A stretch of 64,000 bases of DNA from a virus. The position numbers and the translations under genes are program-made. The stretch's first letter is position 1. Every line of letters begins with the position of its first letter. The notes under the pieces were generated by a model. The model was not told the DNA's origin and searched no databases. It worked only from the letters and a program-made list of their open reading frames with translations. Below, piece after piece: positions 31,941-54,941 of this stretch. The DNA lies in the IMG/VR virus record IMGVR_UViG_3300045988_180880, positions 32,001-96,000 of that record; one strand, written 5' to 3'.

Positions 31941-32354
31941 AATCTTCATATATTAGAATCTAAAGGATCCTAAAGAGCAAAATGTAACTTATTTATGAGG
32001 ACAAAGGAGCTTCCCTTATATTACACCCCTTTTCGCTACCGCTAGGGGTGTCTAAGGAAGAAACTTTGAATAGATATATAGAAAATAAACCCAGAAAATG
32101 AAGATGTTATAAAGATTTTATATTATTGATTTTCGCCTCTCCAAGGAGGCGAATCTAATCTAAATATTACAACTTTTTTTTAGGATAACATATTCTTTCA
32201 TTATTTGTATTTTTACTCCAATCTAAGTTGTTATTTTGCTCTTCTAATAACTTTAAACTCTAATTAATGAAAAAGGGAGACTCCTATGTCTTCATTTTTA
32301 TGTAACTGGATTCTGTATTGAATTAAAAAATAACAATTAAAATATTAAATATTT

Positions 32355-35685: not shown

Positions 35686-36818
35686 ATGTCAGTATCTCTT
35701 GAGTTACTAACCGATGAAGCTATCATCGATTATACTAAAAGTGATGGAAAAGATCAAGTTCTATTTAATCATAGAGACTTGGACCTGAAGTACAATGGAA
35801 TACAACCTATCGCCGGTGGAGTCTATGATGTCGATATTTTTGGCTCACCCATGGAAGATAGATGTATTTGTGGAAAAATTCGACAACCCTCTGCTGAACC
35901 TTGTCCTCATTGCGGGGCGAGAGTATTTACAAGAGAAGAGGGATTGAGAAGATTTGCTAGAATTGAACTTCCTTTCTATTACTTGAATGATTTACGTTTT
36001 GATATCTTTAAAGAACTTTTCGAAGATATTTTTAAAGATAGTAAAATTGTATTAGATTTCTTTGGAGACGATCTTCGAAGAAATGGTTATAGTGCAAGAG
36101 GAGCGAAGAAATTAGGTATTAAAGTTTTTGATACCTGCCAGTTCGAATATAATCCAACAACAAAAGAACTAAAAATATCAGAATTTATTACTGATGAAGC
36201 TCTATGTTCTTACGAAGGATTAATTAAAATTATTGAAGAACATTTTCCCGCTCGTCTTACAGAATTTAAAAAATTAATTAATCGGTATTACCTAGTACAA
36301 CCTGCTATGATGAGACCTTTTACTCTCGGAATTAAAAACGGGAAAAAAGTAATGGGATCTCATAAACTTAGTATTTGGTACTCTATTATTATCAGACTTT
36401 GTTGCGTAGAAGATAAAAAATCTAATGACTTGAACTATGAGGAAGTTACATCTAAATTTAATACCCCTGGAGAAAGAGTTAGATATACAGCCCTTCTACG
36501 TGCTCTCCTAAATGCTGGAAAAAAAGAAGCTACAGCACTACTTAATACATCTAAAGAAAATCTAGCACGTGACTTGTATTCTGTCCGTACTAAAAATTCT
36601 GCTAGATGCCCAATTATACCTAGTACTACATTAGCTATCGATGAAATCTCTGTTCCAATACATATCGCTTATGAAATGTGTCGGGAAGGTTTCTTAGATT
36701 ACTTAATGAAAGAGCTGAATTTTACCAAAAACGAAGCACTCAAAGCAACAAAAGAAGAATATAATAATCCGGAAACTCTGAAAATGTTTAAAGAGTATGC
36801 GGAAAAACAAATCGTACT
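35686..36818 (+). CDS. rpoC: RNAP beta'-like subunit, exon 1
   Basis: zinc-ribbon CICGK..CPHCG near N-terminus; ends ..AEKQIVL(ct-); the ORF-track tail MVS* is intron. Confidence 0.8.
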
Positions 36819-36976
36819 AATGGTTTCCTAATTGGTACGTTAGGTGTGAATCCTAGAATATATAATGTGAATTATGTATTAAATTTTGTGTATTGCTGGG
36901 AGGATCTAAATATCTAATCAGCAGTTGAAGATAATTTATTTATACGAATTTATAATAATTAAAATACTAGAATATT

Positions 36977-37582
36977 ATGAAGGTACTTAGAATTAAACAC
37001 TTCTCTTCTCTAGTATCTACACAACCAATTTTTAATAGATCTGAACATATGAAGCAACTACATGCTCAAGGAAGATATCAAGGTACTTCTAAAATTGGTA
37101 TATGGAATTCTAGTGAAGAGAAGAGACAAAGAATGGCATTACTTGGAGCTAAAAATGCTTTAGATAAAAATTCTAAAGGTTATGGATCTGAGTATGCAAT
37201 GAGAGTAAATAATAGAATATTACTTGGAAATAAATTTCAAGGAGAAACTGGTTATTTATATTTTGTAAGATATCCGAAATCAATAAAAATTGGATTTTCA
37301 AAGAATTGGGAACGTAGAATTAATACCCAATTGATGAATCAATTTCAAATACTTGGTGGAAAAGTTGTAGCAATTATATCAGGACCTACCAATGAACTAG
37401 CTGATCTCGAGTTTGATACTTTTATTAAATTTCAAAAATATACTAAACTGTCTAAAGACGAAACAAGGTATACTGAATTTTTAGATGATAAAATTAGAAA
37501 AGACGTATATAACTTTTTGGATGATAAAGTAAAAAATAATAGTAATTTGAAATTTATTATACAAAATAAAATAAACCTTTGA
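36977..37582 (+). CDS. T5orf172/GIY-YIG-superfamily-like putative homing endonuclease (intron ORF 1)
   Basis: GYLYFVRYPKSIKIGFSKNWERRI core. Confidence 0.5.
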   Translation: MKVLRIKHFSSLVSTQPIFNRSEHMKQLHAQGRYQGTSKIGIWNSSEEKRQRMALLGAKNALDKNSKGYGSEYAMRVNNRILLGNKFQGETGYLYFVRYPKSIKIGFSKNWERRINTQLMNQFQILGGKVVAIISGPTNELADLEFDTFIKFQKYTKLSKDETRYTEFLDDKIRKDVYNFLDDKVKNNSNLKFIIQNKINL

Positions 37583-38364
37583 AATTTATGACACAAGAAG
37601 AAATTAAATACCATAATCAACTATGGTATTATAAAACATATAATCAACTTATAGATAAATGTATACAATTGGAGTCTGATGGTTATCCAGAAGATATGTA
37701 TACAGAGGTTCACCATATATTACCTAAATGTATGGGTGGAACAAATAAGGAAGATAATTTAGTAAGAATGCCTGTTAGATATCATATAATGGCTCATTTA
37801 TTACTTGTAAAAATATATCCAAATATAGGAAAAATAATATATGCAGCTAATATAATGATTGTCGGAAATAAAAATACAAGAGCTGAACGAAATCTAGCTT
37901 TAAATCAATTCTCTACAAAAACTATTAGTCAATTAAGGGAAACTATGGCAAATTATCAGAAAGGAAAACCTTTATCAGAAGAACATAAGCAGAAAATTTC
38001 TTTTGCATTAAAAGGAAAAGTACATTCTGAGGATCATAATAGAAAAGTTTCTGAATCTAAAAAAGGAAAACATTTATCAAAAGAAACGAAAGATAAGTTA
38101 AAGTTGTCCCATTTAGGTAAAAGTCTTTCTGAAAGTCATAAAAAAGCTATTGGAAACGCTCTTCGTGGAAGAAAAGGAAAACCTCTCTCTGAGGAAGTAA
38201 GAGAGAAAATTTCTAAAAATAATAAAATGTCAAAAGCTGTTCAGGATTATAATGGTGTAATTTATAATAGTATCTCTGATTGTTCTAGAAAATTAAATAT
38301 TCCAGATAGTACTATTAGTTATTGGATCAAAAAACATCCTGAAAAAGGTTTTAAATTCGTATAA
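37579..38364 (+). CDS. HNH homing endonuclease with NUMOD3-like repeats (intron ORF 2)
   Basis: EVHHILPKCMGGTN..N HNH motif; repeated S-E-E-H-K-x-K-I-S-x-x-x-K-G-K units; close paralog of 45778..46629. Confidence 0.75.
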   Translation: MKFMTQEEIKYHNQLWYYKTYNQLIDKCIQLESDGYPEDMYTEVHHILPKCMGGTNKEDNLVRMPVRYHIMAHLLLVKIYPNIGKIIYAANIMIVGNKNTRAERNLALNQFSTKTISQLRETMANYQKGKPLSEEHKQKISFALKGKVHSEDHNRKVSESKKGKHLSKETKDKLKLSHLGKSLSESHKKAIGNALRGRKGKPLSEEVREKISKNNKMSKAVQDYNGVIYNSISDCSRKLNIPDSTISYWIKKHPEKGFKFV

Positions 38365-38511
38365 ATAAATTAATCACAATTCAACGACTATGGACAAAAC
38401 CAGGCTAGTGTTGTGATAACCTAGTTTTAACCATGGAAAATATAGTCTTTGCAAGATAGAATTATATCTTGGGTAATCAATATAAGTTGGCTAAAGTATT
38501 GATTATCACAG

Positions 38512-39163
38512 AGTTAATCGCCAACCCTCTTTGCACGAGTACAGTATGTTTAGCATGAAGCTCAAGCTTAATGATTCATATGCAATTGAATTTCCCATCG
38601 CTGTTTGTGAGCCTTTAAATGCTGACTTCGATGGCGATACGTGCTCCATACAACTCGTCCCTCCAGAGGCAGCAGAAGAAACATATCTTAGGATGTCGCC
38701 AAGATATGTGAATGTTTATAAGAAAAATAATGAACCTATATTTAAATTTAACCACGAAACTTTGAATGGTCTTGCAGTTGCATCAGAATACGTATTTGAT
38801 GATCAGGATGAATTAGAAAATCCTAGACACTTTTATACGGATTATGTGCAACTTCTTAAAGATGTTGAAGTAGAGAAAAAAATTAAAGTAGGTACTCCAA
38901 TTACATTCACTGGAAAAATTGGAAATGTTGAATATACCGCTAAAACAACAAGTTATGGTAGACTTCGAATTTCTAAGATTCTAGACGCAGATATGGATGA
39001 AATTGGGATTTTATCTAATAAATATGAACGTATCAGTGCTAAAGCTGCTTCGAAATTATCTTTATATCTTAATCAATTTCCTGATGGAGTTGAGAAAAGA
39101 AAAGCATTACAGAAGCTTGCCCTCAGAATTGTTACATTAGCAGGAGTAGTTACGTTTGACTAT
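38512..39163 (+). CDS. rpoC: RNAP beta'-like subunit, exon 2 (catalytic NADFDGD)
   Basis: junction gives IVL|VNRQPSLH; NADFDGDT at ~38620-38643; ends ..VVTFDY. Confidence 0.8.
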
Positions 39164-39350
39164 AAAATTGTAGCTTAAGAAATAAATTATCTTGAGAAAA
39201 TTCTATTAAAATGCTAGAACTATTAGAATAAAGTAGAATTAGCATCTCTATCTCTTAGATAAAATAGAGTTCAACGACTAAATATAGAACTGTATGAAGT
39301 TATATACAGATGATATAGTCTATCTAAATTAAGAAGATTTAGAATTAATG
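39164..39350 (+). ncRNA. group I intron, family A (187 nt)
   Basis: P1 ctaU / Gtag (short); P aatgctagaac, Q aattagcatc, R gttcaacgactaaa, S gatgatatagtct; ends attaatG. Confidence 0.7.
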
Positions 39351-39464
39351 AAAACGTTATATGCTGATTGTGATACTGAGACGTATAAAAGAATATGTAA
39401 TGTTGCAGATTCAAAAGATCTTACTGATAAACAAAAACTTCTTATAATGACTGAAGAATTTCGT
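39351..39464 (+). CDS. rpoC: RNAP beta'-like subunit, exon 3 (114 nt)
   Basis: KTLYADCDTETYKRICNVADSKDLTDKQKLLIMTEEFR; in frame with exons 2 and 4. Confidence 0.7.
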
Positions 39465-39637
39465 TAATTATTTTTAGCGACTTAATAATTTTAATTATTA
39501 AGAAAAATAAGAGAATTGCTAGAACTATATATAAAATACTGAACTAGCATCAAGTAGTATTAACTATTTGTTCAACGACTATGTACTTATTATAAAATGA
39601 TATAGTCTACCTTTATTGATTGAATAAAGAGTTAGTG
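39465..39637 (+). ncRNA. group I intron, family A (173 nt)
   Basis: P1 tcgU|t / aGcga; P/Q/R/S present; ends agttagtG. Confidence 0.7.
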
Positions 39638-39742
39638 AAATATGAAAAAGAAGTTTCTGAAAGTTTTAGTACAGATCTTAAAAATGAATTAGCACGTGCA
39701 AATCGTGTAAAACTAAACTCGATTGTAGCAATGTCAATGCCT
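39638..39742 (+). CDS. rpoC: RNAP beta'-like subunit, exon 4 (105 nt)
   Basis: KYEKEVSESFSTDLKNELARANRVKLNSIVAMSMP. Confidence 0.7.
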
Positions 39743-39923
39743 AAAGAAAAAATTGGGCAATATAATGAAAATTAACTCATTATATTAAAATTATGTTAAT
39801 TGCTGGAACTGTAAGAATTATAGAATTAGCATCAAGTAAAAGCTTAAATTATTTGTTCAACGACTATATACATAATATTAAAGATATAGTCTAAACTTAT
39901 ATAAAGTAATATAAGTATCATTG
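39743..39923 (+). ncRNA. group I intron, family A (181 nt)
   Basis: P1 tgccU|aa / ttGggca; P/Q/R/S present; ends atcattG. Confidence 0.75.
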
Positions 39924-40042
39924 CAATTTATTGTTAGTGGAGTTGATGAAAAACCTGTTATTACACGAGGAACACTTTTGTCAGGATATACAGAAAAAGA
40001 CTATCAGCTTCATTCAATCGAGAATAGATCACTACAGTCAAT
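39924..40042 (+). CDS. rpoC: RNAP beta'-like subunit, exon 5 (119 nt)
   Basis: QFIVSGVDEKPVITRGTLLSGYTEKDYQLHSIENRSLQS(at-); DYQLHSIENRSL aligns with E. coli QYFISTHGARKGL. Confidence 0.7.
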
Positions 40043-41332
40043 TTTAGTTTACCTTTAGTTGACTATAAATTCTACTAAATGCTGGAATTCTGTGAAGAGA
40101 ATCAGCAGTTAATACAAAACTAAGTCATAAAGTTGTGAAATTATTATGGCAGGGAAATTGGAAAAATTTATATTAACAGATAAAGAAGAAATAGATTCTT
40201 TTAATAAATTAATTAGTTTAAATCCGCAACCTGGAAAATCTTTTGATAATTATTTAAAAGTTATCAATCGCGGTCATTATAAAATATGTTTATATAAATG
40301 GTTTACTGGATTAGATGAAGATATTTATGTAACTCAATCTCATTTATATAAACATTTGAATGATAATAGCAAATTTGTTAAAATAACACCTCAAATTTAT
40401 TATGATGTTATAGTATTAGGTTTGACTAATATTAATGATCGTCCTAAATGTGAAATATGTGGAAAAATATCTAGATGGGATGGATTTAAAAGAGGTTATT
40501 TAAAAACATGTTCAGAAAAGTGTTCTGAACTATTAAGAGATAGTAGAATGTCTGAACAAGGATTAAAAAATTTTCACAAATTACAGACAAAAGAGTCTAG
40601 AGAAAAGCAGAGGGAATCACATAAAGGATGGAGTCCTTCAGAAAAACAAAGAAAACAAATTTCTCAACGAATGAAAGATTTCTATAAGACACCAAAAGGA
40701 TTAGAAATGAGAAAGAATTCTAGTAGGTTATTATCTGAAAGAAATATTGAAATGATGAAAGATAAGTCTTATTATAACAAACGAACAGGAGGTAAATATA
40801 AAACAGGTATATATCATTCTAAAGTTTGGAATAAAGATTTTAATTATGATTCATCTTGGGAAATTAATTTTATAAAATTTTTTGAAAAGCAGAAATGGCA
40901 AAGTGAGATAAAAATATTTGATAGGTGTTTAGATTCTATTATTTATAAATGGGATGATGGAACTGAACATAGATATCTACCTGATTTTTACATCAAATTT
41001 AAATCAGGTCTTCAAGTTGTTATTGAGTTAAAACCAGCAAATCTAATAGAAAAAGATCCGGTGATTTTAGCCAAAAGAATAGCAGCGAAGAAATACTTTG
41101 CAAAAAGAAATATAAAATATATTATATTATCTGAAAATGAACTATTCACAACTAGATATATAAAGTATACTAAATTATCTGAAAGTTTAGGAATAGTTAA
41201 TTCATTTAATATTTATGATTACATAGTTTAATTAAGATTTAGTTTTGTATTAATTCAACGACTATATGTAGAAACTTATGTGAATAAGAAAGGTATAGTC
41301 TAAGTCTTTATGAATAAATAAAGATATCACTG
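40043..41332 (+). mobile_element. group I intron, family A, with endonuclease ORF
   Basis: P1 agtcaaU|t / aGttgact; P aaatgctggaattc, Q gaatcagcagt, R attcaacgactat, S aaggtatagtct; ends tatcactG. Confidence 0.75.
40146..41231 (+). CDS. putative homing endonuclease (NUMOD3-like repeats + PD-(D/E)XK-like C-domain)
   Basis: SEKQRKQISQRMK repeats; YLPDFYIKFKSGLQVVIELKP resembles a PD..(E/D)xK nuclease core. Confidence 0.5.
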   Translation: MAGKLEKFILTDKEEIDSFNKLISLNPQPGKSFDNYLKVINRGHYKICLYKWFTGLDEDIYVTQSHLYKHLNDNSKFVKITPQIYYDVIVLGLTNINDRPKCEICGKISRWDGFKRGYLKTCSEKCSELLRDSRMSEQGLKNFHKLQTKESREKQRESHKGWSPSEKQRKQISQRMKDFYKTPKGLEMRKNSSRLLSERNIEMMKDKSYYNKRTGGKYKTGIYHSKVWNKDFNYDSSWEINFIKFFEKQKWQSEIKIFDRCLDSIIYKWDDGTEHRYLPDFYIKFKSGLQVVIELKPANLIEKDPVILAKRIAAKKYFAKRNIKYIILSENELFTTRYIKYTKLSESLGIVNSFNIYDYIV

Positions 41333-41347
41333 AAAAGTTAGTGGAGT
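41333..41347 (+). CDS. rpoC: RNAP beta'-like subunit, exon 6 (15-nt micro-exon)
   Basis: aaaagttagtggagt; supplies (I)KVSG(V). Downstream P1 agtgg(a)gU|t / aGcccact is homologous to the intron-5 P1. Restores E. coli-like spacing before SGYLTR. Confidence 0.55.
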
Positions 41348-41816
41348 TAGAAATAAAACCTGAACTTTATGGTAGCCCACTATAAATAACAAAGAAATGC
41401 TGGAAATAATAATAGACAGACGAAGTCAAAGTTTTTTAAAATCAGCAACTTATCAACGAGAAAAAGATGAATTATTAGTACTTTTTAAAACTTAATGTGT
41501 AGATTTGAAAAATTCTTAGAAACTCTAAGGCTTGTTGGAAGTATAGCAAGAACTATACTCTCTGGAATTGAAGAATATAGAAAAATTCAAGAAACAAAAG
41601 CTTATCGAGAGAATAAGAAAAATAATGTAAAATATCTACCAAGACCAAAAAGGTATAATAGTAGAAGAAAACAAAGATAAGATCAACGACTATGTATTGT
41701 TAGATTAAGGAAACTCTTTAATCATGATATAGTCTAATCTTACGTGAATAAGCGTAAGCAGGATAAGAGATTAGAAGACGTCTTTTAAAAATTATAATAT
41801 CTAATCTCTTTGAATG
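41348..41816 (+). mobile_element. group I intron, family A, with 61-aa basic ORF remnant
   Basis: P aaatgctggaaat, Q aaatcagcaac, R gatcaacgactat, S atgatatagtct, P9 cttacg../..cgtaag, extra 9-bp hairpin agagattag/ctaatctct; ends ttgaatG. Confidence 0.6.
41495..41680 (+). CDS. small basic intron ORF (61 aa), function unknown
   Basis: ORF track; sits in the loop position used by endonuclease ORFs in sibling introns. Confidence 0.35.
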   Translation: MCRFEKFLETLRLVGSIARTILSGIEEYRKIQETKAYRENKKNNVKYLPRPKRYNSRRKQR

Positions 41817-42106
41817 GCCTAGTTCAGGATATTTAACACGACAAATTTCATTCCTTTTAAATAGTTTTATATATCATGAAGGAGAAGATCCAGAAAACAC
41901 AGGATTACTCATTCCACGATATAAAGCATTAGGAAGAACAGCACCGAACGGAAAGGTATACCCAGACAAACCAATAGTAAATGGTTCTGAGGATGATCTT
42001 GTTCCAGTACGTTCGATTGTTACAAAAAGAACTGGAGATTTAAGCACAATTACACCAGACCTGATTGGAAAGAAATTTAGTTTTACTGATGGAGCAGCAA
42101 TAGGAT
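41817..42106 (+). CDS. rpoC: RNAP beta'-like subunit, exon 7
   Basis: (V)PSSGYLTRQISFLLN...VRSIVT...GAAIG(t--); SGYLTR is a universal beta' block. Confidence 0.7.
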
Positions 42107-42344
42107 AAGTTTAGAATTGTCCATAAAAGTTTGTTATAGACTTTTATTAAACTTCAAGAATTGCTGGGAGTATTATCGCTATTTATTCTTCGCCTTGTAA
42201 AATAAAAAACTTAAGGCGAAAATTATATAGCGAGAGATAATCAGCAAAAGATATAGAAAATATATCTTCTTAACGACTATGTGTGAAGGAGAGATTAAAA
42301 CACTCTTAAGATATAGTCTAGTAATCTATATAAAGTTTGTATAG
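42107..42344 (+). ncRNA. group I intron, family A (238 nt)
   Basis: P1 ggaU|aa / ttGtcc; P aattgctgggag, Q taatcagcaaa, R cttaacgactat, S aagatatagtct; ends gtatagG. Confidence 0.7.
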
Positions 42345-42392
42345 GTTTAATCGTATCATTTGCTACATCATTAACTGAAGGTACTACTCAAT
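42345..42392 (+). CDS. rpoC: RNAP beta'-like subunit, exon 8 (48 nt)
   Basis: (C)[15 protein letters not shown](t--), equivalent of the trigger-loop block IAAQSIGEPGTQLT. Confidence 0.7.
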
Positions 42393-42573
42393 TAAAATTG
42401 GTTGCTATATAAAATAGTATTATATAGAAAATCTTTGTAAAATGCTGGAAATTAAAAAAAAATAATCAGCATCAAGGAATATATTAATAACTTGTTCAAC
42501 GACTATAAAAAAAGATCTTATTAATTTAAGAATGGTATAGTCTAAATTCATTCTAAAAGGATGAATAATCTTG
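42393..42573 (+). ncRNA. group I intron, family A (181 nt)
   Basis: P1 caaU|t / gGttg; P/Q/R/S present; ends aatcttG. Confidence 0.65.
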
Positions 42574-42602
42574 CAGCATTAGGTCTGAAACATGGTGGCC
42601 AT
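42574..42602 (+). CDS. rpoC: RNAP beta'-like subunit, exon 9 (29 nt)
   Basis: (S)ALGLKHGGH, equivalent of E. coli MRTFHIGG. Confidence 0.7.
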
Positions 42603-42762
42603 AGATTATATTTGTGGCGTATAATTTCAATAATTGCTGGAAATATTTGTAATAAAATAAATCAGCAGGGGAAAATAAAATCCCTTCAACGACTATAAAT
42701 GAAACTAGATGAATTTCTGGATGATATAGTCTAACTTATAAATTATATTATAAGAGTAATTG
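42603..42762 (+). ncRNA. group I intron, family A (160 nt)
   Basis: P1 gccaU|a / tGtggc; P aattgctggaaat, Q aaatcagcagg, R cttcaacgactat, S gatgatatagtct; ends agtaattG. Confidence 0.75.
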
Positions 42763-43002
42763 GAACGTGTGCTTAATACAGAAGGAAATCTTAAAGCACC
42801 AAAACAATGTGAGTTTAGAGAGGAAGGCAGATGGATTTACCTAAAAGTTAGAGGAGGAGAATTAAAATATCCGAGACCTAATAATTGGGTAGGAGTAGGT
42901 AAGACAAAATTTGAGAAAGGTGACTTAATAGGGTCAGCTTATAATACTACCTCGCCTATTTACAAGTTGAACGCTCTCATAAAACTTATGCGTGCCAAAG
43001 GT
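42763..43002 (+). CDS. rpoC: RNAP beta'-like subunit, exon 10
   Basis: ERVLNTEGNLKAP...LIKLMRAKG; the ORF-track tail EYKIAV* is intron. Confidence 0.7.
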
Positions 43003-43195
43003 GAATATAAAATTGCCGTCTAAGGAAGTAATTCTCTAGATAATTAGTAAGTAAATTTGGTGAAGCTAGTAACTAGTAATACCAAGCCTTGGATTAATAA
43101 TTAGAATCTTAAGGTATAACGAATAAAGACTTACCAACTTTTTTATAAGTTGAATTTATATTCTAAACTATAATAAGAAAATTATAGATAAATTG
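43003..43195 (+). ncRNA. group I intron, family B copy 1 (193 nt)
   Basis: P1 ggU|ga / ttGcc; P3 agtaagt/acttacc, P4 tttggt/accaag, P7 gaata/tattc; ends ataaattG. Confidence 0.75.
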
Positions 43196-43804
43196 AGTGA
43201 TGGCACAAGATATTTTGAGAAGGATAATGTTATTGTATCTGATTGTTATGCTTTGAATGATGGGGTTATTCATTACAAAGAGACCAAGGAAGGTGATACT
43301 GAAGTTTGGATTGGTGATACTCAGTATGACTATAATCCAGAGTGTATGTATTATTTTCCTGATGGTACAGAGATTAAGAAATTTCAAAGAATTTCCAGCG
43401 GAGTTTGCAATATGAATCATGTTATTGCAGAGTTGGGTTCTAATATTAATGATATTTACTTAATCTTTAGAAAACAATTTTATACTTTAACAGATGGAGG
43501 ATTTGTATCAACTGGTTTATCAGATCTTCATGCTACACAGGAAGAACTTATTGAACTTTTATTCACAGGTTTAACTGATGTAGGTGTAGATCCAGAAACA
43601 CAGAAGATTGAAGACATCCAATATCTAGGTACTCAAAGTGGTGTTTTAAATAAGAAGTCATTCTATACTGTTTTGTCTTACGGTTATAGCTCTAGAGTTG
43701 TGTCTAAAGCTCTCAAAGGGGAATTAAATCTTTCTGGTGACGTAATGACAGAAACTATATTAGGATTACTTTTAAATAATAAACTTGACGAAAAACAAAA
43801 GTAA
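43196..43804 (+). CDS. rpoC: RNAP beta'-like subunit, exon 11 (C-terminus)
   Basis: SDGTRYFEKDN...; total spliced frame 3351 nt + stop. Confidence 0.75.
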   Translation, partial: SDGTRYFEKDNVIVSDCYALNDGVIHYKETKEGDTEVWIGDTQYDYNPECMYYFPDGTEIKKFQRISSGVCNMNHVIAELGSNINDIYLIFRKQFYTLTDGGFVSTGLSDLHATQEELIELLFTGLTDVGVDPETQKIEDIQYLGTQSGVLNKKSFYTVLSYGYSSRVVSKALKGELNLSGDVMTETILGLLLNNKLDEKQK

Positions 43805-44123: not shown

Positions 44124-44474
44124 ATGAACGATAATTATTATAAAATTATACTATCATATGAAATTCCATATAACATTTTAGACAGTCAAGATCCGAATAT
44201 TATACAGGCGAGAGAAATATTATATGAAAAACTTAGAGATGATATTTTTCCGAAGTATGAAAGATTTTCGGTAAAGCTTACATTACATCAACTTAAAGAT
44301 AACTTCAATTATCTTGTTACTTATGAAGCTTTTTTTAGATCTCTTGATGGTAAACCTATGGGAGAATATGTAGAGGCTCGTAGCTTAAAAGATAGTATTA
44401 AATCAGAATTAGAAACATTTTTTAATTCAGTAGATTGCGAATATAAGCAATTAAATATAAAACCATTAGTATAA
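44124..44474 (+). CDS. hypothetical protein between beta' and beta genes
   Basis: ORF track; stop overlaps the beta start (TAATG). Confidence 0.5.
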   Translation: MNDNYYKIILSYEIPYNILDSQDPNIIQAREILYEKLRDDIFPKYERFSVKLTLHQLKDNFNYLVTYEAFFRSLDGKPMGEYVEARSLKDSIKSELETFFNSVDCEYKQLNIKPLV

Positions 44475-45336
44475 TGAGTAATTTTAATCAATATTTCAGA
44501 AACACTGGAGCAAAAATTATAGTAGATCGATTTTTTAATAAAGTTGATGCATATAATCCTAAAGTAAAAGTTGGAAAAATTGGATATTCATTTATAGAAG
44601 AACCTCCTCAACCAGCTTCTTACTATATTGAAAATGGATTAACTGCTACACATAAAGTAAGAATTGAATATACAACTATAACGGATGGGAAAGAAGATCC
44701 TGAAATGAAGTATGCAGAGTTCGAAGTTCCTAAAGAAATTGATGGTGCATTTATTATAGAAGGCGCTTATCGTATTTCAACTAATCGAATGGGATCTGAT
44801 TATGACTGTCGTATTAAAATGTCTGGTACAGGAGATTATAAAGTTAATTTCGACTATGATAGAGTTTACGATATTCAAAAACAGATTCTGAAGATAAAAA
44901 GAATTAATCCGGAACTTGGAATTGCAGATAAACCAATTGATATAAAGTTTGAAGACATTGATAAATACTTGGAAACTGATAAAAAGGAGATCTTGAAGTT
45001 AACTGAAAGACAAACCAAGAAATTAATGATCAAACTTGACTTGGATTATAAACCTGAATATATTACACAAAAACTAATACAGGAATGTTTGGCCTTTGGA
45101 GATGATAGACTAAAAGACTTAATCATTGATAAAACATTAGAATCAGTTCCTAACAGTTTTATGCAATATATTTTTAGGAATAATAATGGACGTAACTATT
45201 TTGCAGCTAGACGAAGAATTACATCATATTTTACAAAGTATGGTAAAATTCAAGATCAAGTTACTGCAATTAGTACTTTGTGTTTTAGATTTTTTAAAGG
45301 AAGTAGCGATAACAAAGGAGATTCAGGAGTACAGGT
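44474..45336 (+). CDS. rpoB: RNAP beta-like subunit, exon 1
   Basis: ends ..GDSGVQ(gt-); the ORF-track tail is intron. Confidence 0.75.
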
Positions 45337-45544
45337 ACAAAATATAAAGGTGCCGTTTTATGGAGAAATCTATAAAATTATTAGTAAGTAAATTCGGTGA
45401 AGGGTAAAACCTAATACCGAACTAAGGATAATGAAAATTTTTAGTGTAACGAATAAAGACTTACTAACTTATAATTAAAATATAAGTTAAATTTATATTC
45501 TGTTCTATATAAGTAGAACTTTATTTATATAGTTAACAATAAAG
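45337..45544 (+). ncRNA. group I intron, family B copy 2 (208 nt)
   Basis: P1 ggU|ac / gtGcc; P3 agtaagt/acttact, P4 ttcggt/accgaa, P7 gaata/tattc; ends caataaaG. Confidence 0.75.
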
Positions 45545-45635
45545 CCCCCCTGGAGTAAATTCCATTAACTTAGAGGCAATCTCCCAAAAAATTGTTATTC
45601 CTGCGAGTGTAGCCTTTAATTCGACTTTTACAGAT
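45545..45635 (+). CDS. rpoB: RNAP beta-like subunit, exon 2 (91 nt)
   Basis: (V)PPGVNSINLEAISQKIVIPASVAFNSTFTD. Confidence 0.7.
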
Positions 45636-46763
45636 TTAGATTAAGTCTGATTATAGAATATTTTTTATAATAAAAACTTTGAGAATTGCTAGAAAACTAG
45701 TGATAGTTAATTAGCAGTATAAAATAAGTATAATTATTTATGCGTTGAGAGGAAAAATTTTTGAAAGGAATTTAAGAATGACGCATGTAAAAGAAATTAA
45801 ATACCACAATCAATTATGGTATTATAAAACGTACAATCAGTTAATAGATAAGTGTATACAGATGGAGTCTGAAGGTTATCCTGAAGATATGTATACAGAG
45901 GTTCACCACATACTACCTAAATGTATGGGTGGGACAAATGATGAGTCTAACTTAGTAAGAATGCCAGTTAGGTATCATATAATGGCACATTTATTGTTAG
46001 CACAAGTATATCCAGAAATAAATGGATTAGTTTATGCAGCACATGTTCTAGTCTCAGTGAATAATTCAGTTGTATCTACGAATACAGCTGCATTAATTAG
46101 AGAAGATTTTAAAAAGTCTAGAATAGGATCTCATCATTCAGAAGAGACAAGGAGAAAAATTTCTGAATCTAACAAAGGAAAAGTTATCCCTAGAGAACTA
46201 GTAGAGAAGTTAAGATCTATTAATTTAGGGAAGAAACATTCACTTGAAACGAGAAAGAAGATGTCAGAAGCTAGAAAAAGAGAGAATTTATCCGAGGAAA
46301 CACTAAGAAAAAGATCTCTAGCGTCCTCTGGAAGAAAACATTCTGAAGAAGTCAAGAAGAAGATTTCTATAGCTAATACTGGAAAAATTTTTAGCGAAGA
46401 ACACAGACAAAACATATCTAAAAGTAAGATGGGAAAAGGACATCCACATACTGAAAAAACAAAGAAAATGATGTCTGATACTAGCGTTAAGAGAAAAAGA
46501 GTTCAAGGCCCTGATGGAATAATTTACGAATCTATGAAACTTTGTTGTGAGAAATTTAATATTCATAGAGATACCCTTCGAAGCTGGATTAAAAATCACC
46601 CAGAAAAAGGCTTTAAATTTATTGATTAAAAAATTTATCATTACTATAAATTCCTTTCAATGTAATGAAATTTAATACTTATTTTATATTCAACGACTAT
46701 GTACAAAGAGGGAAATTCCTTAAGATATAGTCTAGTGATAAAGTAAAAAACTTTATCTATTCG
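45636..46763 (+). mobile_element. group I intron, family A, with HNH endonuclease ORF
   Basis: P1 cagaU|tta / taaGtctg; P aattgctagaaa, Q aattagcagt, R attcaacgactat, S aagatatagtct; ends ctattcG. Confidence 0.8.
45778..46629 (+). CDS. HNH homing endonuclease with NUMOD3-like repeats
   Basis: start moved to ATG 45778 (the track starts at an upstream TTG); first ~80 aa are near-identical to 37579..38364. Confidence 0.75.
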   Translation: MTHVKEIKYHNQLWYYKTYNQLIDKCIQMESEGYPEDMYTEVHHILPKCMGGTNDESNLVRMPVRYHIMAHLLLAQVYPEINGLVYAAHVLVSVNNSVVSTNTAALIREDFKKSRIGSHHSEETRRKISESNKGKVIPRELVEKLRSINLGKKHSLETRKKMSEARKRENLSEETLRKRSLASSGRKHSEEVKKKISIANTGKIFSEEHRQNISKSKMGKGHPHTEKTKKMMSDTSVKRKRVQGPDGIIYESMKLCCEKFNIHRDTLRSWIKNHPEKGFKFID

Positions 46764-47132
46764 TTAGTCGATATTGCCGACACTCCTATAAATAATAATA
46801 CTAACCTCCAGAACTCACTTACAGTTTCATGTCATATTACAGACGATGATGTACTATTTGATGTATATGATACAAATTTCGTAAAAATAACAATAAAATA
46901 TATAGACTATCTTAATAAAAAAGTAGCTGCCAGTGAGTATGTAGATTATGAAACTAACACTTTAAAGCCAGATAAAGATGGTCAAGTGGAGGTTAAGTAT
47001 AGGATGAAAAGAAAGATGGTTCCAGTCGAAGAAGTGGAATTGATCGATTTACATCCTGATTACAGATTGTCTAGCACAACTCGAAGAATCCCATTTGTGA
47101 ATTATACAGATAGTGTCAGAATAAGCATGGGT
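46764..47132 (+). CDS. rpoB: RNAP beta-like subunit, exon 3
   Basis: LVDIADTPINNNTNLQNSL (E. coli CPIETPEGPNIGLINSL) ... RRIPFVNYTDSVRISMG. Confidence 0.8.
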
Positions 47133-47326
47133 ACTAATTTATGTGCCGCTTAAAGTAGTAATATTTTAAGTAACCAGTAAGTAAATTCGGTGAAAGAGTG
47201 ACTGAGCTTTAATACCGAGCTAAAGATAATAGATTTCTTTAGTGTAACGAATAAAGACTTACTAACCAAAATAAAGGTTAAATTTATATTCTAAACTATA
47301 ATTAAAAGTATATTATAGAAGATTTG
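47133..47326 (+). ncRNA. group I intron, family B copy 3 (194 nt)
   Basis: P1 ggU|ac / gtGcc; core as in other B copies; ends aagatttG. Confidence 0.8.
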
Positions 47327-48266
47327 ACATCAATGCTTAAACAGAGTATACCTCTGATTAATGCGGAGCGTGCACTTGTTGACACTGGAAGGAATGAAGA
47401 GTTGAAAGATAATATATTAAATGAAAAGTTCAGTTATCCAGAGGGTAAGGTAAAGGATATAACAGAGGATGAAGTTATAATTGAATTGCCTGATGGAACT
47501 GAGACAAATATTTTACGAAGAACAGCGATTCAGAGTATAAATGACGTGGCGGTATTTACAGAGCCTAAAGTAAAAATCGGCCAAAAAGTAAAACAGGGAG
47601 ATATTATAACTGGTGCAGTTGGACATACTCCTGAAACATATAAGGCCGGCGTTAATGCTCTGGTACTTTTCCACGCCTATTATGGTTTAGTAAATGAGGA
47701 TGCTTTGGTGATATCAGAATCATTTGCAAATCGTATAGCATCTTATAGTATAATTGACTTAATGATTAATGTTAAGAGTACTAGTGCTATTAAGTGGATC
47801 GCCCCTATTGGAACAAAGGTTAAATCAAAAGATGCAGTAGTGACATTATATAAAGCTGTTCGTCTTGATGCTATAAATCAGGCACTACAAGAAAAACTCG
47901 GAGGACTTTTCGGAGAAGGACATGATCTCTCCGAATATACTATCGAGGATCATTTAGTTGTGCCTAATAATATAGACGAGGCAATAGTTTCTGATGTAAT
48001 GATACAGGAAATGAAGAAACCTAAAATTCCTAAATCAGTAAAATCACCTGACTATTCATTTACACATACCTCTCAGGATGTTATAGATGAATATGAAAAA
48101 ACAAAATCTCGAAAAATTATCTACGAGAAATACCCAGAGTATATTGCAGCTGATACATTAGATCCTATTAATATGGATCCAGAAGCGTATAAGATTGTGT
48201 ATACTGTTCGCGTGAGACTCATCAAAAGAACTGTGGGAATGATCGGAAGTAAAATTACCTCTAGAT
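47327..48266 (+). CDS. rpoB: RNAP beta-like subunit, exon 4
   Basis: junction SMG|TSMLKQSIPL aligns residue-for-residue with E. coli LMGANMQRQAVPT; ends ..GSKITSR(t--). Confidence 0.8.
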
Positions 48267-49666
48267 TTAATATAAGTCTAGTTAATTTTCAATAAAAGTT
48301 AACTAAATTTTGTGAATTGCTGGAAAAATCTAAATAAAATAGATGGATAGATAAATCAGCAGTATATTTATGTTTAATTATGAGTAAAATATGAGCGATA
48401 TTAATTTTTAATAATAAATTGAACAATGAGCGAAGAAGAAATATTAATACATAATCAAAATTGGTATCGCAAAGTATATTTCCAAATAATTGATCGCGCT
48501 AGATTAAGAGGTTTGGATAAAAATAAAATTGATTTTTATGTAGAAATTCATCATATACTACCTAAATGCCTAGGAGGAACTGATGAAAATGATAACTTAG
48601 TTGCATTAACTTATAGAGAACATATAGTTTGTCATAAATTATTGTGTAAATTATACCCAGATAATTACTACTTACATTCTTCTATATATTTAATGCTACA
48701 TATTAAAATAGAAAATGGGAAGAAGGTAAAAACATTTTCTAATTCTAAAGAGGCAGAAGAATATAAGCTTTTCTTGAAAACTCATAAAAAGCCTCTTTCT
48801 GAGGAATCTAGAAAAAAGATGTCAGAATCGCATAAAGGTTGGAGTCCATCTGAGGAACATAGAAGAAGAGTTTCAGAAGTACATACTGGAAAAATCGTTT
48901 CAAAAGAAACCAGAGAAAAATTAAGAAAGGTTAATCTGGGAAGACATCATACAGAAGAATCCAAAAGAAAGATATCAGAGTCACGTAGAGGAAAGAAATT
49001 ATCTTCAGAACAAAAAGAAAAAATTTCAAAATCACTAAAAGGAAAAAGATTAGGAATCTCTCCAACTAAGGAACAAGTAGAAAAAGCAAAACAAACTCGG
49101 ATACTCCATGGAGGGTGGGTACATACAGATGAAAGTAAAAGAAAAATTTCAGAATCTTTAAAGAAGACGAATTCTGTCTCTGAACATATATCAGAAGATA
49201 TAAGAAATTCTTTAAGGAAAAAGTTTGGGTTCGCTGTAAGATATACTGATATTAATACTGGTGAAATTTACGAATTTGATTCAATTACAAAAGCTGTTAG
49301 TGAACTTAAAGAGTTAAGTATTATGAATAAAAGCTTTCATTTTATAAAGCGTTCTTGTACATTAAATATTAATGGATTTGAATTTATCAATGAAACAAAT
49401 GAAATGATTCAAAAGAAAGTTCAGGGGCCTGATGGAATTATTTACAATAGTATATCTGAATGTGCTAGACAATTGAATACAGTTAGATCTGTAATTATTG
49501 ATTGGATTACTAATCATCCAGAAAAAGGATTTAAATACATTTAAAAAATCAATCGCTCATTGATATAAAAATAATTAAATAAAATATATTCAACGACTAT
49601 GTACAAAGAAGGAGTATTTCCTTAAGATATAGTCTAGACTTTACTTAATTAAGTAAAGTATTATCG
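48267..49666 (+). mobile_element. group I intron, family A, with HNH endonuclease ORF
   Basis: P1 ctagaU / Gtctag; P aattgctggaaaa, Q aaatcagcagt, R attcaacgactat, S aagatatagtct; ends tattatcG. Confidence 0.8.
48426..49544 (+). CDS. HNH homing endonuclease with NUMOD3-like repeats
   Basis: EIHHILPKCLGGTDENDN; many SEExRxKxSExxKG repeats; C-terminal WITNHPEKGFKYI as in the two paralogs. Confidence 0.75.
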   Translation: MSEEEILIHNQNWYRKVYFQIIDRARLRGLDKNKIDFYVEIHHILPKCLGGTDENDNLVALTYREHIVCHKLLCKLYPDNYYLHSSIYLMLHIKIENGKKVKTFSNSKEAEEYKLFLKTHKKPLSEESRKKMSESHKGWSPSEEHRRRVSEVHTGKIVSKETREKLRKVNLGRHHTEESKRKISESRRGKKLSSEQKEKISKSLKGKRLGISPTKEQVEKAKQTRILHGGWVHTDESKRKISESLKKTNSVSEHISEDIRNSLRKKFGFAVRYTDINTGEIYEFDSITKAVSELKELSIMNKSFHFIKRSCTLNINGFEFINETNEMIQKKVQGPDGIIYNSISECARQLNTVRSVIIDWITNHPEKGFKYI

Positions 49667-49680
49667 ATGGAGGCAAAGGT
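49667..49680 (+). CDS. rpoB: RNAP beta-like subunit, exon 5 (14-nt micro-exon)
   Basis: atggaggcaaaggt gives (Y)GGKG; the join ITSR-YGGKG-VVSAVKPDDMMP matches E. coli GRHGNKGVISKINPIEDMP. Confidence 0.75.
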
Positions 49681-49871
49681 CAAATTACAAGGCCGTTTAA
49701 GGTAGTAATATCTTAAATAATCAGTAAGTAAATTTGGTGAAGGAAGTAAAATTCTAATACCAAGCTAATAAAATATAATAATTTATTAGTATAACGAATA
49801 AAGACTTACTAGGTTGAAATAATACCTAAATTTATATTCTAATTTACTAGGATAATCTAGTAATAGTAATG
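49681..49871 (+). ncRNA. group I intron, family B copy 4 (191 nt)
   Basis: P1 ggU|c / gGcc; P3 agtaagt/acttact, P4 tttggt/accaag, P7 gaata/tattc; ends agtaatG. Confidence 0.75.
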
Positions 49872-50645
49872 GTTGTAAGTGCTGTGAAACCCGACGATAT
49901 GATGCCAATAATGGTAGATAAGGATGGGAAACAAAGACGTTGCGAAGTAGTGATGAATCCATACAGCACAATAAATCGTAAAATTCCGAGTGTCCTTATG
50001 GAATTACAACTCGGAAATATCGCTCACAAATTACACGATCTTGTAGATAATTATAAGAAAACAAAAACAGGGCAAAAGAAGATTAAGCCCCTTCTTGAAA
50101 CATATTACCCCGGACGTTTTACTAGTATGGATGTAGAAGAAATTATAGAACGTCATAATACTAGTAAAATCGAGGATATGTATTATTTCAATGTTGGCTG
50201 CTTCTCTACTAAATTTACTCCAGAACTTGTAAATCAATGGGCTGAAGATTTAGGTGTAGAAAGTCAGAGTAAAATTCTTATGCCTGAGACTGAATTAACA
50301 GATCTCGATGAATTAAAAGAAAATCTAGAACCAGAAGAATATGATAAATTAGTTTCTGGAATGTCTGGTAAGTTTAGAGAAGTAGATAAACCTTTGCAGG
50401 CGGGATTCATGACCCTTGAAGAGTTATACCATATACCATCATATAGTAATAAGGTTACATCAAGTCTATATGGCGTAGATATTAATGCTAAACGAGATGA
50501 ACCTATACTTGGAAAGGGACGCTATAGACAGACAGGACAGAAAATTGGTGAGATGGAATTGGCCGTATTACTTTCTAGAAATGCGGATCAATTTATCAGC
50601 GGTGCTAGAAAAGACACTGCGAAGGAAGATAATCAAATGTTCCTT
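49872..50645 (+). CDS. rpoB: RNAP beta-like subunit, exon 6
   Basis: VVSAVKPDDMMP..VVMNPYS...GQKIGEMELAVLL (E. coli GGQRFGEMEVWALE)...NQMFL. Confidence 0.8.
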
Positions 50646-50833
50646 AAATTATTGAGGCTAGTATCAATACAAACTGATACTAGAAAATATCTTAAATTGC
50701 TGGAACAAAGTAGAAAATCAGCATCAAGCTGTTGTTTTATAATTAACAGCTTGTTCAACGACTATAGTAGATACTAAAGAATACTTATTTTAGATAATAT
50801 AGTCTTACTTTAAATAAAATTAAAGATGAATAG
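50646..50833 (+). ncRNA. group I intron, family A (188 nt)
   Basis: P1 cctU|a / tGagg; P aaattgctggaac, Q aaatcagcatc, R gttcaacgactat, S gataatatagtct; ends atgaataG. Confidence 0.7.
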
Positions 50834-50862
50834 AATAACTTATTAGGTCTAGGATTAACCGT
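50834..50862 (+). CDS. rpoB: RNAP beta-like subunit, exon 7 (29 nt)
   Basis: NNLLGLGLT(gt-), equivalent of E. coli NVLLKEIRSLGI. Confidence 0.65.
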
Positions 50863-51067
50863 AAACTATTTGCGGTTTTAAATTATATTAAAATGCTAGA
50901 ATATTTATAATAAATATATTAGCAAAATATCTTACCTTAGATTATATCTAAGAAAAAGATATTCTCAACGACTAAATATATAACTAAGTTTGAAATATAA
51001 TTTAGATGATATAGTCTGAACATAGATTAATAATAATCTAGTAACGTAATTGAGTAGATGATAAAGG
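50863..51067 (+). ncRNA. group I intron, family A (205 nt)
   Basis: P1 aaccgU / Gcggtt; P aaaatgctagaat, Q atattagcaaa, R ctcaacgactaaa, S gatgatatagtct. 3' end placed at the only G (51067) that keeps the frame open. Confidence 0.6.
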
Positions 51068-51164
51068 ATTTAACCAAGGTGGATCAAGTCTGAAAAAGGA
51101 ATTGAATGACTTAAAGATTAAATTCCGTCGTAAAAATAACCTATTAAACATGGGAGGTAATTGA
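51068..51164 (+). CDS. rpoB: RNAP beta-like subunit, exon 8 (C-terminus)
   Basis: (V)FNQGGSSLKKELNDLKIKFRRKNNLLNMGGN*; total spliced frame 3177 nt including stop. Confidence 0.6.
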
Positions 51165-54867: not shown

Positions 54868-54941
54868 TGGGCCCAGCCAGGCTTGAACTGACGACCTTCT
54901 GATTATGAGTCAGCTTCTCTAACCAACTGAGATATGGGCCC
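54868..54941 (-). tRNA. tRNA with CAU anticodon (Met, or Ile if lysidine-modified)
   Basis: minus strand gggcccatatctcagttggttagagaagctgactCATaatcagaaggtcgtcagttcaagcctggctgggccca; 7-bp acceptor, GTTCAAG T-loop. Confidence 0.85.

Follow-up and report, generated by a model that had tools for sequence, protein, structure and literature searches.

Micro-exons of 14 and 15 nt between adjacent predicted group I introns in the RNA polymerase genes of a huge AT-rich phage

The RNA polymerase (RNAP) genes of a huge AT-rich phage contain two micro-exons, of 14 nt in the gene for the beta subunit and of 15 nt in the gene for beta', each located between two separate, complete group I introns. Both lie in a 64,000-nt stretch of viral DNA, here called the window (positions 32,001 to 96,000 of IMG/VR record IMGVR_UViG_3300045988_180880). 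The reading preferred here, with a probability of about 0.85, is that the micro-exons are remnants between independently inserted and independently self-splicing group I introns, each with its own splice-site recognition. It draws on the anatomy of the two sites, their colinearity with alleles that lack these introns, the coding constraint on the micro-exon, an RNA structure with covariation and the presence/absence polymorphism of the introns among relatives.

Organisation of the RNA polymerase genes

Open reading frames (ORFs) for fragments of RNAP are distributed over 35.7-51.2 kb of the window on the plus strand and represent beta' (Rpb1 domain 2, with the NADFDGD motif) and beta (Rpb2 domain 6). 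Among them lie HNH/NUMOD homing endonuclease ORFs and one TnsA-like ORF. The window is AT-rich, with 27-33% GC across 34-52 kb. The beta' gene (35686-43804, plus strand) comprises 11 exons of 1133, 652, 114, 105, 119, 15, 290, 39, 29, 240 and 609 nt separated by 10 introns (A1-A9 and B1), and the beta gene (44474-51164, plus strand) comprises 8 exons of 863, 91, 369, 940, 14, 774, 29 and 113 nt separated by seven introns (B2, A10, B3, A11, B4, A12 and A13). Thirteen of these 17 introns belong to one family, designated A, and four to another, designated B. Joined at the predicted junctions, the frames are open over 1114 aa (beta') and 1063 aa (beta). One tRNA gene (54868-54941, minus strand; Rfam RF00005, 62.9 bits) is located downstream of the polymerase genes. 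Neither a near nor a protein-level match to the window was found in the GenBank phage collection by megablast and tblastn.

All 17 junctions were defined by a U before the 5' splice site, a G as the final base of the intron and the fit to uninterrupted homologues; the 5' splice sites of A1, A4 and A10 were set from homologues together with P1 pairing. The preceding U and the terminal G are present at 17 of 17 introns. Every intron also runs into an in-frame stop within 0-43 codons, which blocks read-through translation and excludes repair at the protein level, and inteins were therefore ruled out as the nature of the 17 insertions.

The sequence-only reading that preceded this analysis had given the coordinates and sizes of both micro-exons and their flanking introns (A11 of 1400 nt, B4 of 191 nt, A5 and A6) exactly, and its view that the micro-exons are coding exons between separate, complete group I introns is borne out by the homologues lacking these introns and the contig L001 described below. 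It had also listed further small exons of 29, 29 and 48 nt. The two of 29 nt are found at 42574-42602 and 50834-50862, while the supposed 48-nt exon, at 42354-42392, is 39 nt long as judged from P0124, a homologue with 97% identity, and from the pairing GGAU/GUCC in P1.

The 14-nt exon of the beta gene

Beta exon 4 (47327-48266, plus strand; 940 nt) is colinear with the homologous proteins P0001-P0014 and with the L001 DNA, and ends in ...AAA ATT ACC TCT AGA T, encoding KITSR and providing the first base of a Tyr codon. It is followed on the same strand by the family A intron A11 (48267-49666; 1400 nt, final base G49666), the micro-exon itself (beta exon 5, 49667-49680; 14 nt, ATGGAGGCAAAGGT, that is atggaggcaaaggt, final base T), the compact family B intron B4 (49681-49871; 191 nt, without an ORF, final base G49871) and beta exon 6 (49872-50645; 774 nt), which starts with GTTGTAAGT (GTT GTA AGT GCT; VVSAVKPDDMMP...). 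The last T of exon 4 together with the 14 nt encodes Y-G-G-K-G of the catalytic motif RYGGKGVVS of beta (RHGNKGVIS in bacteria), and the predicted peptide across the micro-exon reads SRYGGKGVVSAVK. Skipping of the 14-nt exon was computed to shift the frame and to lead to a stop 16 codons on.

Intron A11 carries, between its Q and R elements, an ORF for a 372-aa homing endonuclease (48426-49544, plus strand) with HNH and NUMOD3/NUMOD1 domains, which is I-HmuI-like (phrog_655, E = 4e-39). Its P1 is formed by CTAGAT (48261-48266) and GTCTAG (48276-48281); it ends in a U.G pair next to the splice site and reads, as RNA, CUAGAU|UUAAUAUAA-GUCUAG. The core elements include P (TGCTGG) at 48318, R (AACGACTA) at 49592-49599 and S (GATATAGTCT) at 49626-49635. 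No convincing P10 of A11 was found with AUGGAG, the first bases of the 14-nt exon. In B4, P1 is formed by GGT|C (49678-49681) and GGCC (49691-49694), and only the last three bases of the micro-exon are used in it (GGU/GCC), the U forming a U.G pair. A P10 of 6 bp joins TTACAA (49685-49690) to TTGTAA in exon 6 (49873-49878), the 5' strand of P3 is located at 49723-49729, and the 5' strand of P7 and the 3' strand of P3 at 49792-49809. Alternative boundaries of B4, after ...AAGGCCGT and after ...TAATAG, would keep the frame (YGGKG-QITRPLM-VVS) and were rejected: the resulting 7-aa insertion occurs in no homologue, and in every family B copy the 5' splice site follows a GGU that is partnered by GCC.

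In a search of 5.8 billion proteins, many beta homologues uninterrupted at this site were found, their contigs reaching ~200-430 kb. Homologues without these introns are continuous over both micro-exon sites, reading ...GSKITSRYGGKGVVSKV... in beta and ...HSIENRSLQSIKVSGVPSSGYLTRQ... in beta'. The 95%-identical protein P0001 has MIGSKITSRYGGKGVVSKVQSDDLMPIMVDK across the beta site, and the same motif is present in P0002-P0014. The contig encoding P0001 (L001; ENA ERZ28618392) has neither A11 nor B4, and its DNA, ...AAAATTACCTCTAGAT ATGGTGGTAAGGGT GTTGTATCA... (TCTAGAT ATGGTGGTAAGGGT GTTGTA), is exactly colinear with exon 4, the micro-exon and exon 6 of the window. Within the 14 nt the window and L001 differ at three positions (GGT/GGA, GGT/GGC and AAG/AAA), all of them third-codon and synonymous; the restriction of change to synonymous sites indicates protein-coding constraint on these 14 nt. 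Exons are 93-100% identical over many contigs, and their frames are open.

The YGGKG sequence is shared by all homologues and by solved RNAP beta chains. In alignments, the counterpart of the window motif is GSKITGRYGNKGVIS in the solved phage RNAP chain 7S00_C and GDKMCGRHGNKGVIS in bacterial beta. Chain 7S00_C (665 aa, deposited as 'DNA-directed RNA polymerase'), which we take to be the beta fragment of a phage AR9-type non-virion RNAP, is the closest solved structure to the motif region of beta. This match places the enzyme with the multisubunit RNAPs of phages, apart from the bacterial ones.

The succession of A11, micro-exon and B4 is identical in seven IMG/VR loci (L012, L018, L021, L025, L028, L045 and L051). 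In one of them, L012 (IMGVR_UViG_3300029127_000001), ~560 nt of the HNH ORF of A11 are gone (L012 2044-2054 versus 48956-49513 in the window), with the ribozyme ends and the micro-exon kept; judging by the sequence, this looks like decay of the endonuclease inside a retained intron.

The 15-nt exon of the beta' gene

The second micro-exon has family A introns on both sides, all features being on the plus strand. Beta' exon 5 (39924-40042; 119 nt) ends in ...CAG TCA AT and is followed by A5 (40043-41332; 1290 nt), in which P1 is formed by AGTCAAT (40036-40042) and GTTGACT (40058-40064) and which contains the ORF of the TnsA-like endonuclease of the PD-(D/E)XK type (40146-41231). The micro-exon, beta' exon 6 (41333-41347; 15 nt, AAAAGTTAGTGGAGT, that is aaaagttagtggagt), encodes (I)KVSG(V). 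Next comes A6 (41348-41816; 469 nt), with its 3' splice site after ...CTTTGAATG and an ORF for a basic 61-aa protein to which no function was assigned (41495-41680), and then beta' exon 7 (41817-42106; 290 nt), starting with G CCT AGT TCA GGA (V-PSSGYLTRQ). A start of exon 7 at 41767 ('RRLLKIIISNLFEW...') was discarded, as alignment with homologues puts the 3' splice site after the above-mentioned end of A6 and the start at 41817. The same arrangement of A5, micro-exon and A6 is also found in L003 and L036.

The P1 of A6 pairs TAGTGG(A)GT (41339-41347) with GCCCACTA (41375-41382). One A is bulged, the pair next to the splice site is U.G, and the RNA hairpin is UAGUGG(A)GU|UA...UAGCCCACUA. This hairpin coincides with the minimum free energy (MFE) fold (-12.2 kcal/mol, z = -2.7). 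Skipping of the 15-nt exon was computed to remain in frame, with IKVSG deleted.

The sequence GTTAGTGGAGTT is shared, with 12 of 12 nt, by 39934-39945 inside beta' exon 5 and by 41337-41348, which spans part of the micro-exon and the start of A6. The two copies are 1.4 kb apart, both encode VSGV, and the sequence contains the exon strand of the A6 P1. A6 could use the upstream copy as a cryptic 5' splice site; the repeat may equally be due to chance in AT-rich DNA. Its interpretation as a duplication was set aside since exact 12-mers are not rare at 28% GC and both sites encode VSGV.

Two families of predicted group I introns

The 13 family A introns all contain the elements P (AATTGCTGGAA), Q (AATCAGCA), R (TTCAACGACTAT) and S (GATATAGTCT) and terminate in G; the R core AACGACTA occurs 13 times in comparison with 1.1 expected. 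Each of the 13 has a P1 with a guide to its own exon and a U.G pair, and the guides vary with the exon context, as in A5 (AGUCAAU/GUUGACU) and A13 (AACCGU/GCGGUU). A compensatory change is seen in P4 (TGCTGG/TCAGCA versus TGCTAG/TTAGCA). In a scan for P1 over both families, helices of at least 4 bp closed by U.G were found at 16 of 17 splice sites versus 32% of control T positions in exons, and MFE folds recover the P1 of A6, B4 and A11. Two members, A9 (42603-42762, 160 nt) and A3 (39465-39637, 173 nt), are very small, apparently complete group I introns. Intron A1 contains two consecutive ORFs, 36977-37582 and 37579-38364, one with a weak homing endonuclease match and the other of the HNH-NUMOD3 type.

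The four family B introns (43003-43195, 45337-45544, 47133-47326 and 49681-49871, plus strand) are ~190-208 nt long, lack ORFs and all end in G. They share the 20-mer AGTAAGTAAATTYGGTGAAG, which occurs four times versus 0.01 expected. An alignment of 17 distinct sequences, including additional copies from IMG/VR huge-phage contigs, was tested for the helix order P2-P3-P4-P5-P6-P7-P3'-P8-P7', in which P3 and P7 cross. In it 96.7% of cells are paired, versus at most 48.5% with the partners slid, and 15 pairs are changed on both sides, covariation backing P2, P4, P5, P6 and P8. P3 and P7 are perfectly paired and invariant, the invariance being partly imposed by the pattern of the collecting search, and the pseudoknot is thus compatible with the data without support from covariation.

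Family B introns always follow GGU and have a GCC partner 8-18 nt downstream, in at least 13 exon contexts on huge-phage contigs (the window, L001 and L003-L057); one such site lies inside the NADFDG|D motif of beta' (L005, position 366). The P1 scan gave AGGU/GUYU or UGGGU/GCUUA as the best register for this family, not GGU/GCC; the latter rests on its invariance among the members and on the MFE fold of B4. The P10, formed by the bases just 5' of GCC with the beginning of the 3' exon, tracks the 3' exon: UUACAA/UUGUAA in B4, AUGU/ACAU in B3, CUUU/AAAG in L007 and UAUU/GAUA in L005. The fixed 3-nt guide suggests low target specificity, perhaps with dispersal through reverse splicing; that family B is a minimal group I ribozyme which enters any exposed GGU in this way by its fixed GCC guide, without a homing endonuclease, is an unlikely reading.

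No group I intron was reported by Rfam at the gathering score, and scans of the whole window and of 20-kb pieces were empty of intron matches. Family model RF00028 (Intron_gpI) aligns with A9 over its full length in a short-region scan, with 29.3 bits and E = 2e-5, a score below the gathering score of 50 that explains the empty scans; for family B it gives only 10.7 bits (E = 7.4). Gene callers and the curated threshold of Rfam thus miss all 17 introns and both micro-exons, and as a consequence such phages seem to have fragmented RNAP genes.

Distribution of the introns in related phages

The introns next to the micro-exons vary among relatives. The contig L001, without A11 and B4, also lacks A5 and has A6, and A5 is missing from L015 as well. 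L005 and L007 both lack A11 and B4. A family A intron follows AATCCTAT| in L005; in L007 one follows GTTGTGAT|, and there is also a family B intron after TATGGAGGT|, at a point 6 nt before the B4 site. Comparison of the window (48260-49960) with L005 (10470-12060) and L007 (8480-9040) delimits a hot spot of ~120 nt around YGGKG of beta, in which close relatives use at least five insertion sites, following TCTAGAT, GGAGGT, AAAGGT, GTTGTGAT and AATCCTAT.

This variation in the presence and sites of introns suggests that the micro-exons arose as a side effect when introns invaded a hot spot repeatedly and independently. Both flanking introns are complete and occur independently, and the 14-nt piece between them has been retained as coding sequence with only synonymous variation. 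A micro-exon would arise when a second mobile group I intron inserts a few codons from a resident one, leaving a remnant of the exon between them; at both sites the insertions would have affected highly conserved RNAP stretches of a huge AT-rich phage. The two genes illustrate how conserved catalytic motifs act as hot spots of repeated invasion by mobile introns.

Proposed splicing of the adjacent introns

In the proposed mechanism, each intron would self-splice alone and repair the pre-mRNA. Its 5' splice site would be found by a short P1 ending in a U.G pair and its 3' site by the terminal G, supplemented in B4 by the 6-bp P10. The HNH-carrying A11 would need essentially nothing from the micro-exon and B4 would need the last three bases. 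Either intron could be removed first, and precise excision of both with the 14 nt kept would produce the catalytic (R)YGGKGVVS loop of beta. Exon ligation at the predicted sites would give a sequence colinear with the alleles that lack these introns. We infer from the sequence that splicing occurs, that it is independent of proteins and that no order is imposed on it. Since the flanking introns are found without the partner, or are absent, in close relatives, each is expected to splice alone. The P1 of B4 has just 3-4 bp and that of A6 is bulged, and helper proteins or context could therefore matter, leaving room for some coupling of neighbours.

A general functional coupling of the packed ribozymes is unlikely; under it, A11 with B4 and A5 with A6 would follow an obligatory order or aid each other's folding, or their mis-joining (a frameshift in beta, an in-frame 5-aa deletion in beta') would throttle active RNAP. 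The sequence-only reading saw ordered or cooperative splicing as implied by the dual use of each micro-exon, which indeed also provides the exon strand of P1 for the next intron, GGU|C/GGCC in B4 and UAGUGG(A)GU/GCCCACUA in A6. However, every group I intron takes this strand from the bases just upstream, and the sharing is thus uninformative on order. Splice sites 14-15 nt apart with two folded cores side by side, together with the very short GGU/GCC helix of B4, whose GCC can also be paired by a competing GGC of the micro-exon in the centroid fold, might mean that B4 folds productively only after removal of A11, or the reverse. Such an obligatory order or cooperation is nevertheless improbable: the exon-recognition elements of A11 and B4 do not overlap, so that nothing in the sequence forces an order and either may go first; family B has the same invariant GGU/GCC at 13 or more other sites, where the exons are long as usual; A6 exists without A5 in L001; and L007, in which A11 is absent, has its family B intron just 6 nt before the B4 site. 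Moreover, for a 1-nt exon of placozoans the intermediates of both orders have been recovered (PMC5436844).

Tandem group I modules spliced as a unit are known from Ophiostoma cox3-640 (PMC12308204), and exon skipping by phage group I ribozymes appears in the title of Landthaler & Shub 1999, as cited in PMC11878797. By analogy, A11, the 14 nt and B4 (or A5, the 15 nt and A6) could be a tandem twintron excised as a whole, the short piece being a discarded pseudo-exon. This is very improbable, since the 14 nt correspond exactly to the YGGKG of all homologues and solved beta chains and vary only synonymously, and their loss shifts the frame, with a stop 16 codons later. Skipping in beta' would keep the frame but remove IKVSG, a sequence that homologues conserve. 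Multisubunit RNAPs of phages are often divided among several separate polypeptides, and the closest solved relative, 7S00_C, is itself a 665-aa phage beta fragment. The polymerase could accordingly be assembled from separately translated, unspliced fragments, like the split subunits of phiKZ/AR9 type, or the genes could be decaying pseudogenes. Both notions are scarcely credible in view of exons of 14, 15, 29, 29 and 39 nt, which are too small for separate proteins, of interruptions that all bear the hallmarks of group I introns and leave the gene exactly colinear with uninterrupted homologues, and of open exon frames that are 93-100% identical over many contigs. Independent insertion and independent self-splicing of the introns therefore remains the preferred reading.

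Comparison with known systems

The contention that group I exons of this size were without precedent is contradicted by the mitochondrial literature. A 1-nt exon lies between two group IB introns in placozoan cox1, where both splicing intermediates were sequenced (PMC5436844), exons of 12-15 bp occur in cox1, cob and cox2 of Armillaria (PMC6506933), an 18-nt piece separates two group IB modules in cob of Ophiostoma (PMC12308204), and, according to the MFannot paper, mini-exons shorter than about four codons 'occur regularly' (PMC10352661). The window shares with these cases the location of a few bases of a conserved coding motif between two group I introns that are complete and were acquired separately, the need of the exon for an essential residue or motif and the origin by insertion of a second intron beside a resident one. 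It differs in that the host is a bacteriophage, the gene encodes an RNAP subunit, the introns belong to two phage-specific families and the system is known from sequence alone. Introns here are also much smaller than the mitochondrial ones, at 160-210 nt for those without ORFs.

Among phages, the huge gut 'Jug' phages (360-402 kb, 27-30% GC, with RpoC) have on average 18.5 group I introns of ~206 nt per genome and many HNH and PD-(D/E)XK endonucleases, and metatranscriptomes support 37 of their 76 predicted introns (PMC12880540). A general likeness to the Jug (PMC12880540 / PMC12363816) and crAss-like phages is seen: genome sizes would be roughly 230-430 kb going by the contigs with homologues, GC is ~28-29%, an RpoC-type polymerase is encoded, numerous group I introns of ~200 nt are accompanied by stand-alone or intron-borne HNH and PD-(D/E)XK endonucleases, and essential genes are interrupted. 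The genes given prominence in the Jug paper are terL, nrdD and DNA polymerase, and exon sizes and micro-exons go unmentioned there (PMC12880540). The density of introns also differs, ~18.5 per genome in the Jug phages (PMC12880540) in contrast to 17 in two adjacent genes of the window.

The gene gp210 of PhiPA3, encoding RNAP beta, contains an HNH group I intron (PMC11620839). It resembles the window in having such an intron at a conserved site of the catalytic region in beta of a jumbo-phage multisubunit RNAP, with presence varying between relatives (PMC11620839), but the intron of PhiPA3 is single, whereas there are seven in beta and 10 in beta' here, and neighbouring insertions have created micro-exons. 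The orf142 of Staphylococcus phage Twort has three group I introns in one gene and shows exon skipping (Landthaler & Shub 1999, as cited in PMC11878797). On the strength of that citation, Twort resembles the window in that a single phage gene holds several neighbouring, independent group I introns, with the attendant risk of mis-joining; it has far fewer introns per gene.

The window provides a clear natural example of two different compact group I ribozymes placed 14 nt apart in the active-site motif of RNAP; one, of 1400 nt, includes a homing endonuclease gene, and the other, of 191 nt, has none. With alleles that lack these introns available in close relatives, it is a convenient in vitro system for the folding of adjacent ribozymes and the avoidance of exon skipping. 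Current understanding of group I splicing is unchanged by the micro-exons. A literature search found no report of micro-exons in phages. The micro-exon principle itself is not new, and intron-crowded genes have already been described in huge gut phages; what may be new is the occurrence in a phage and the crowding of 17 introns into two genes.
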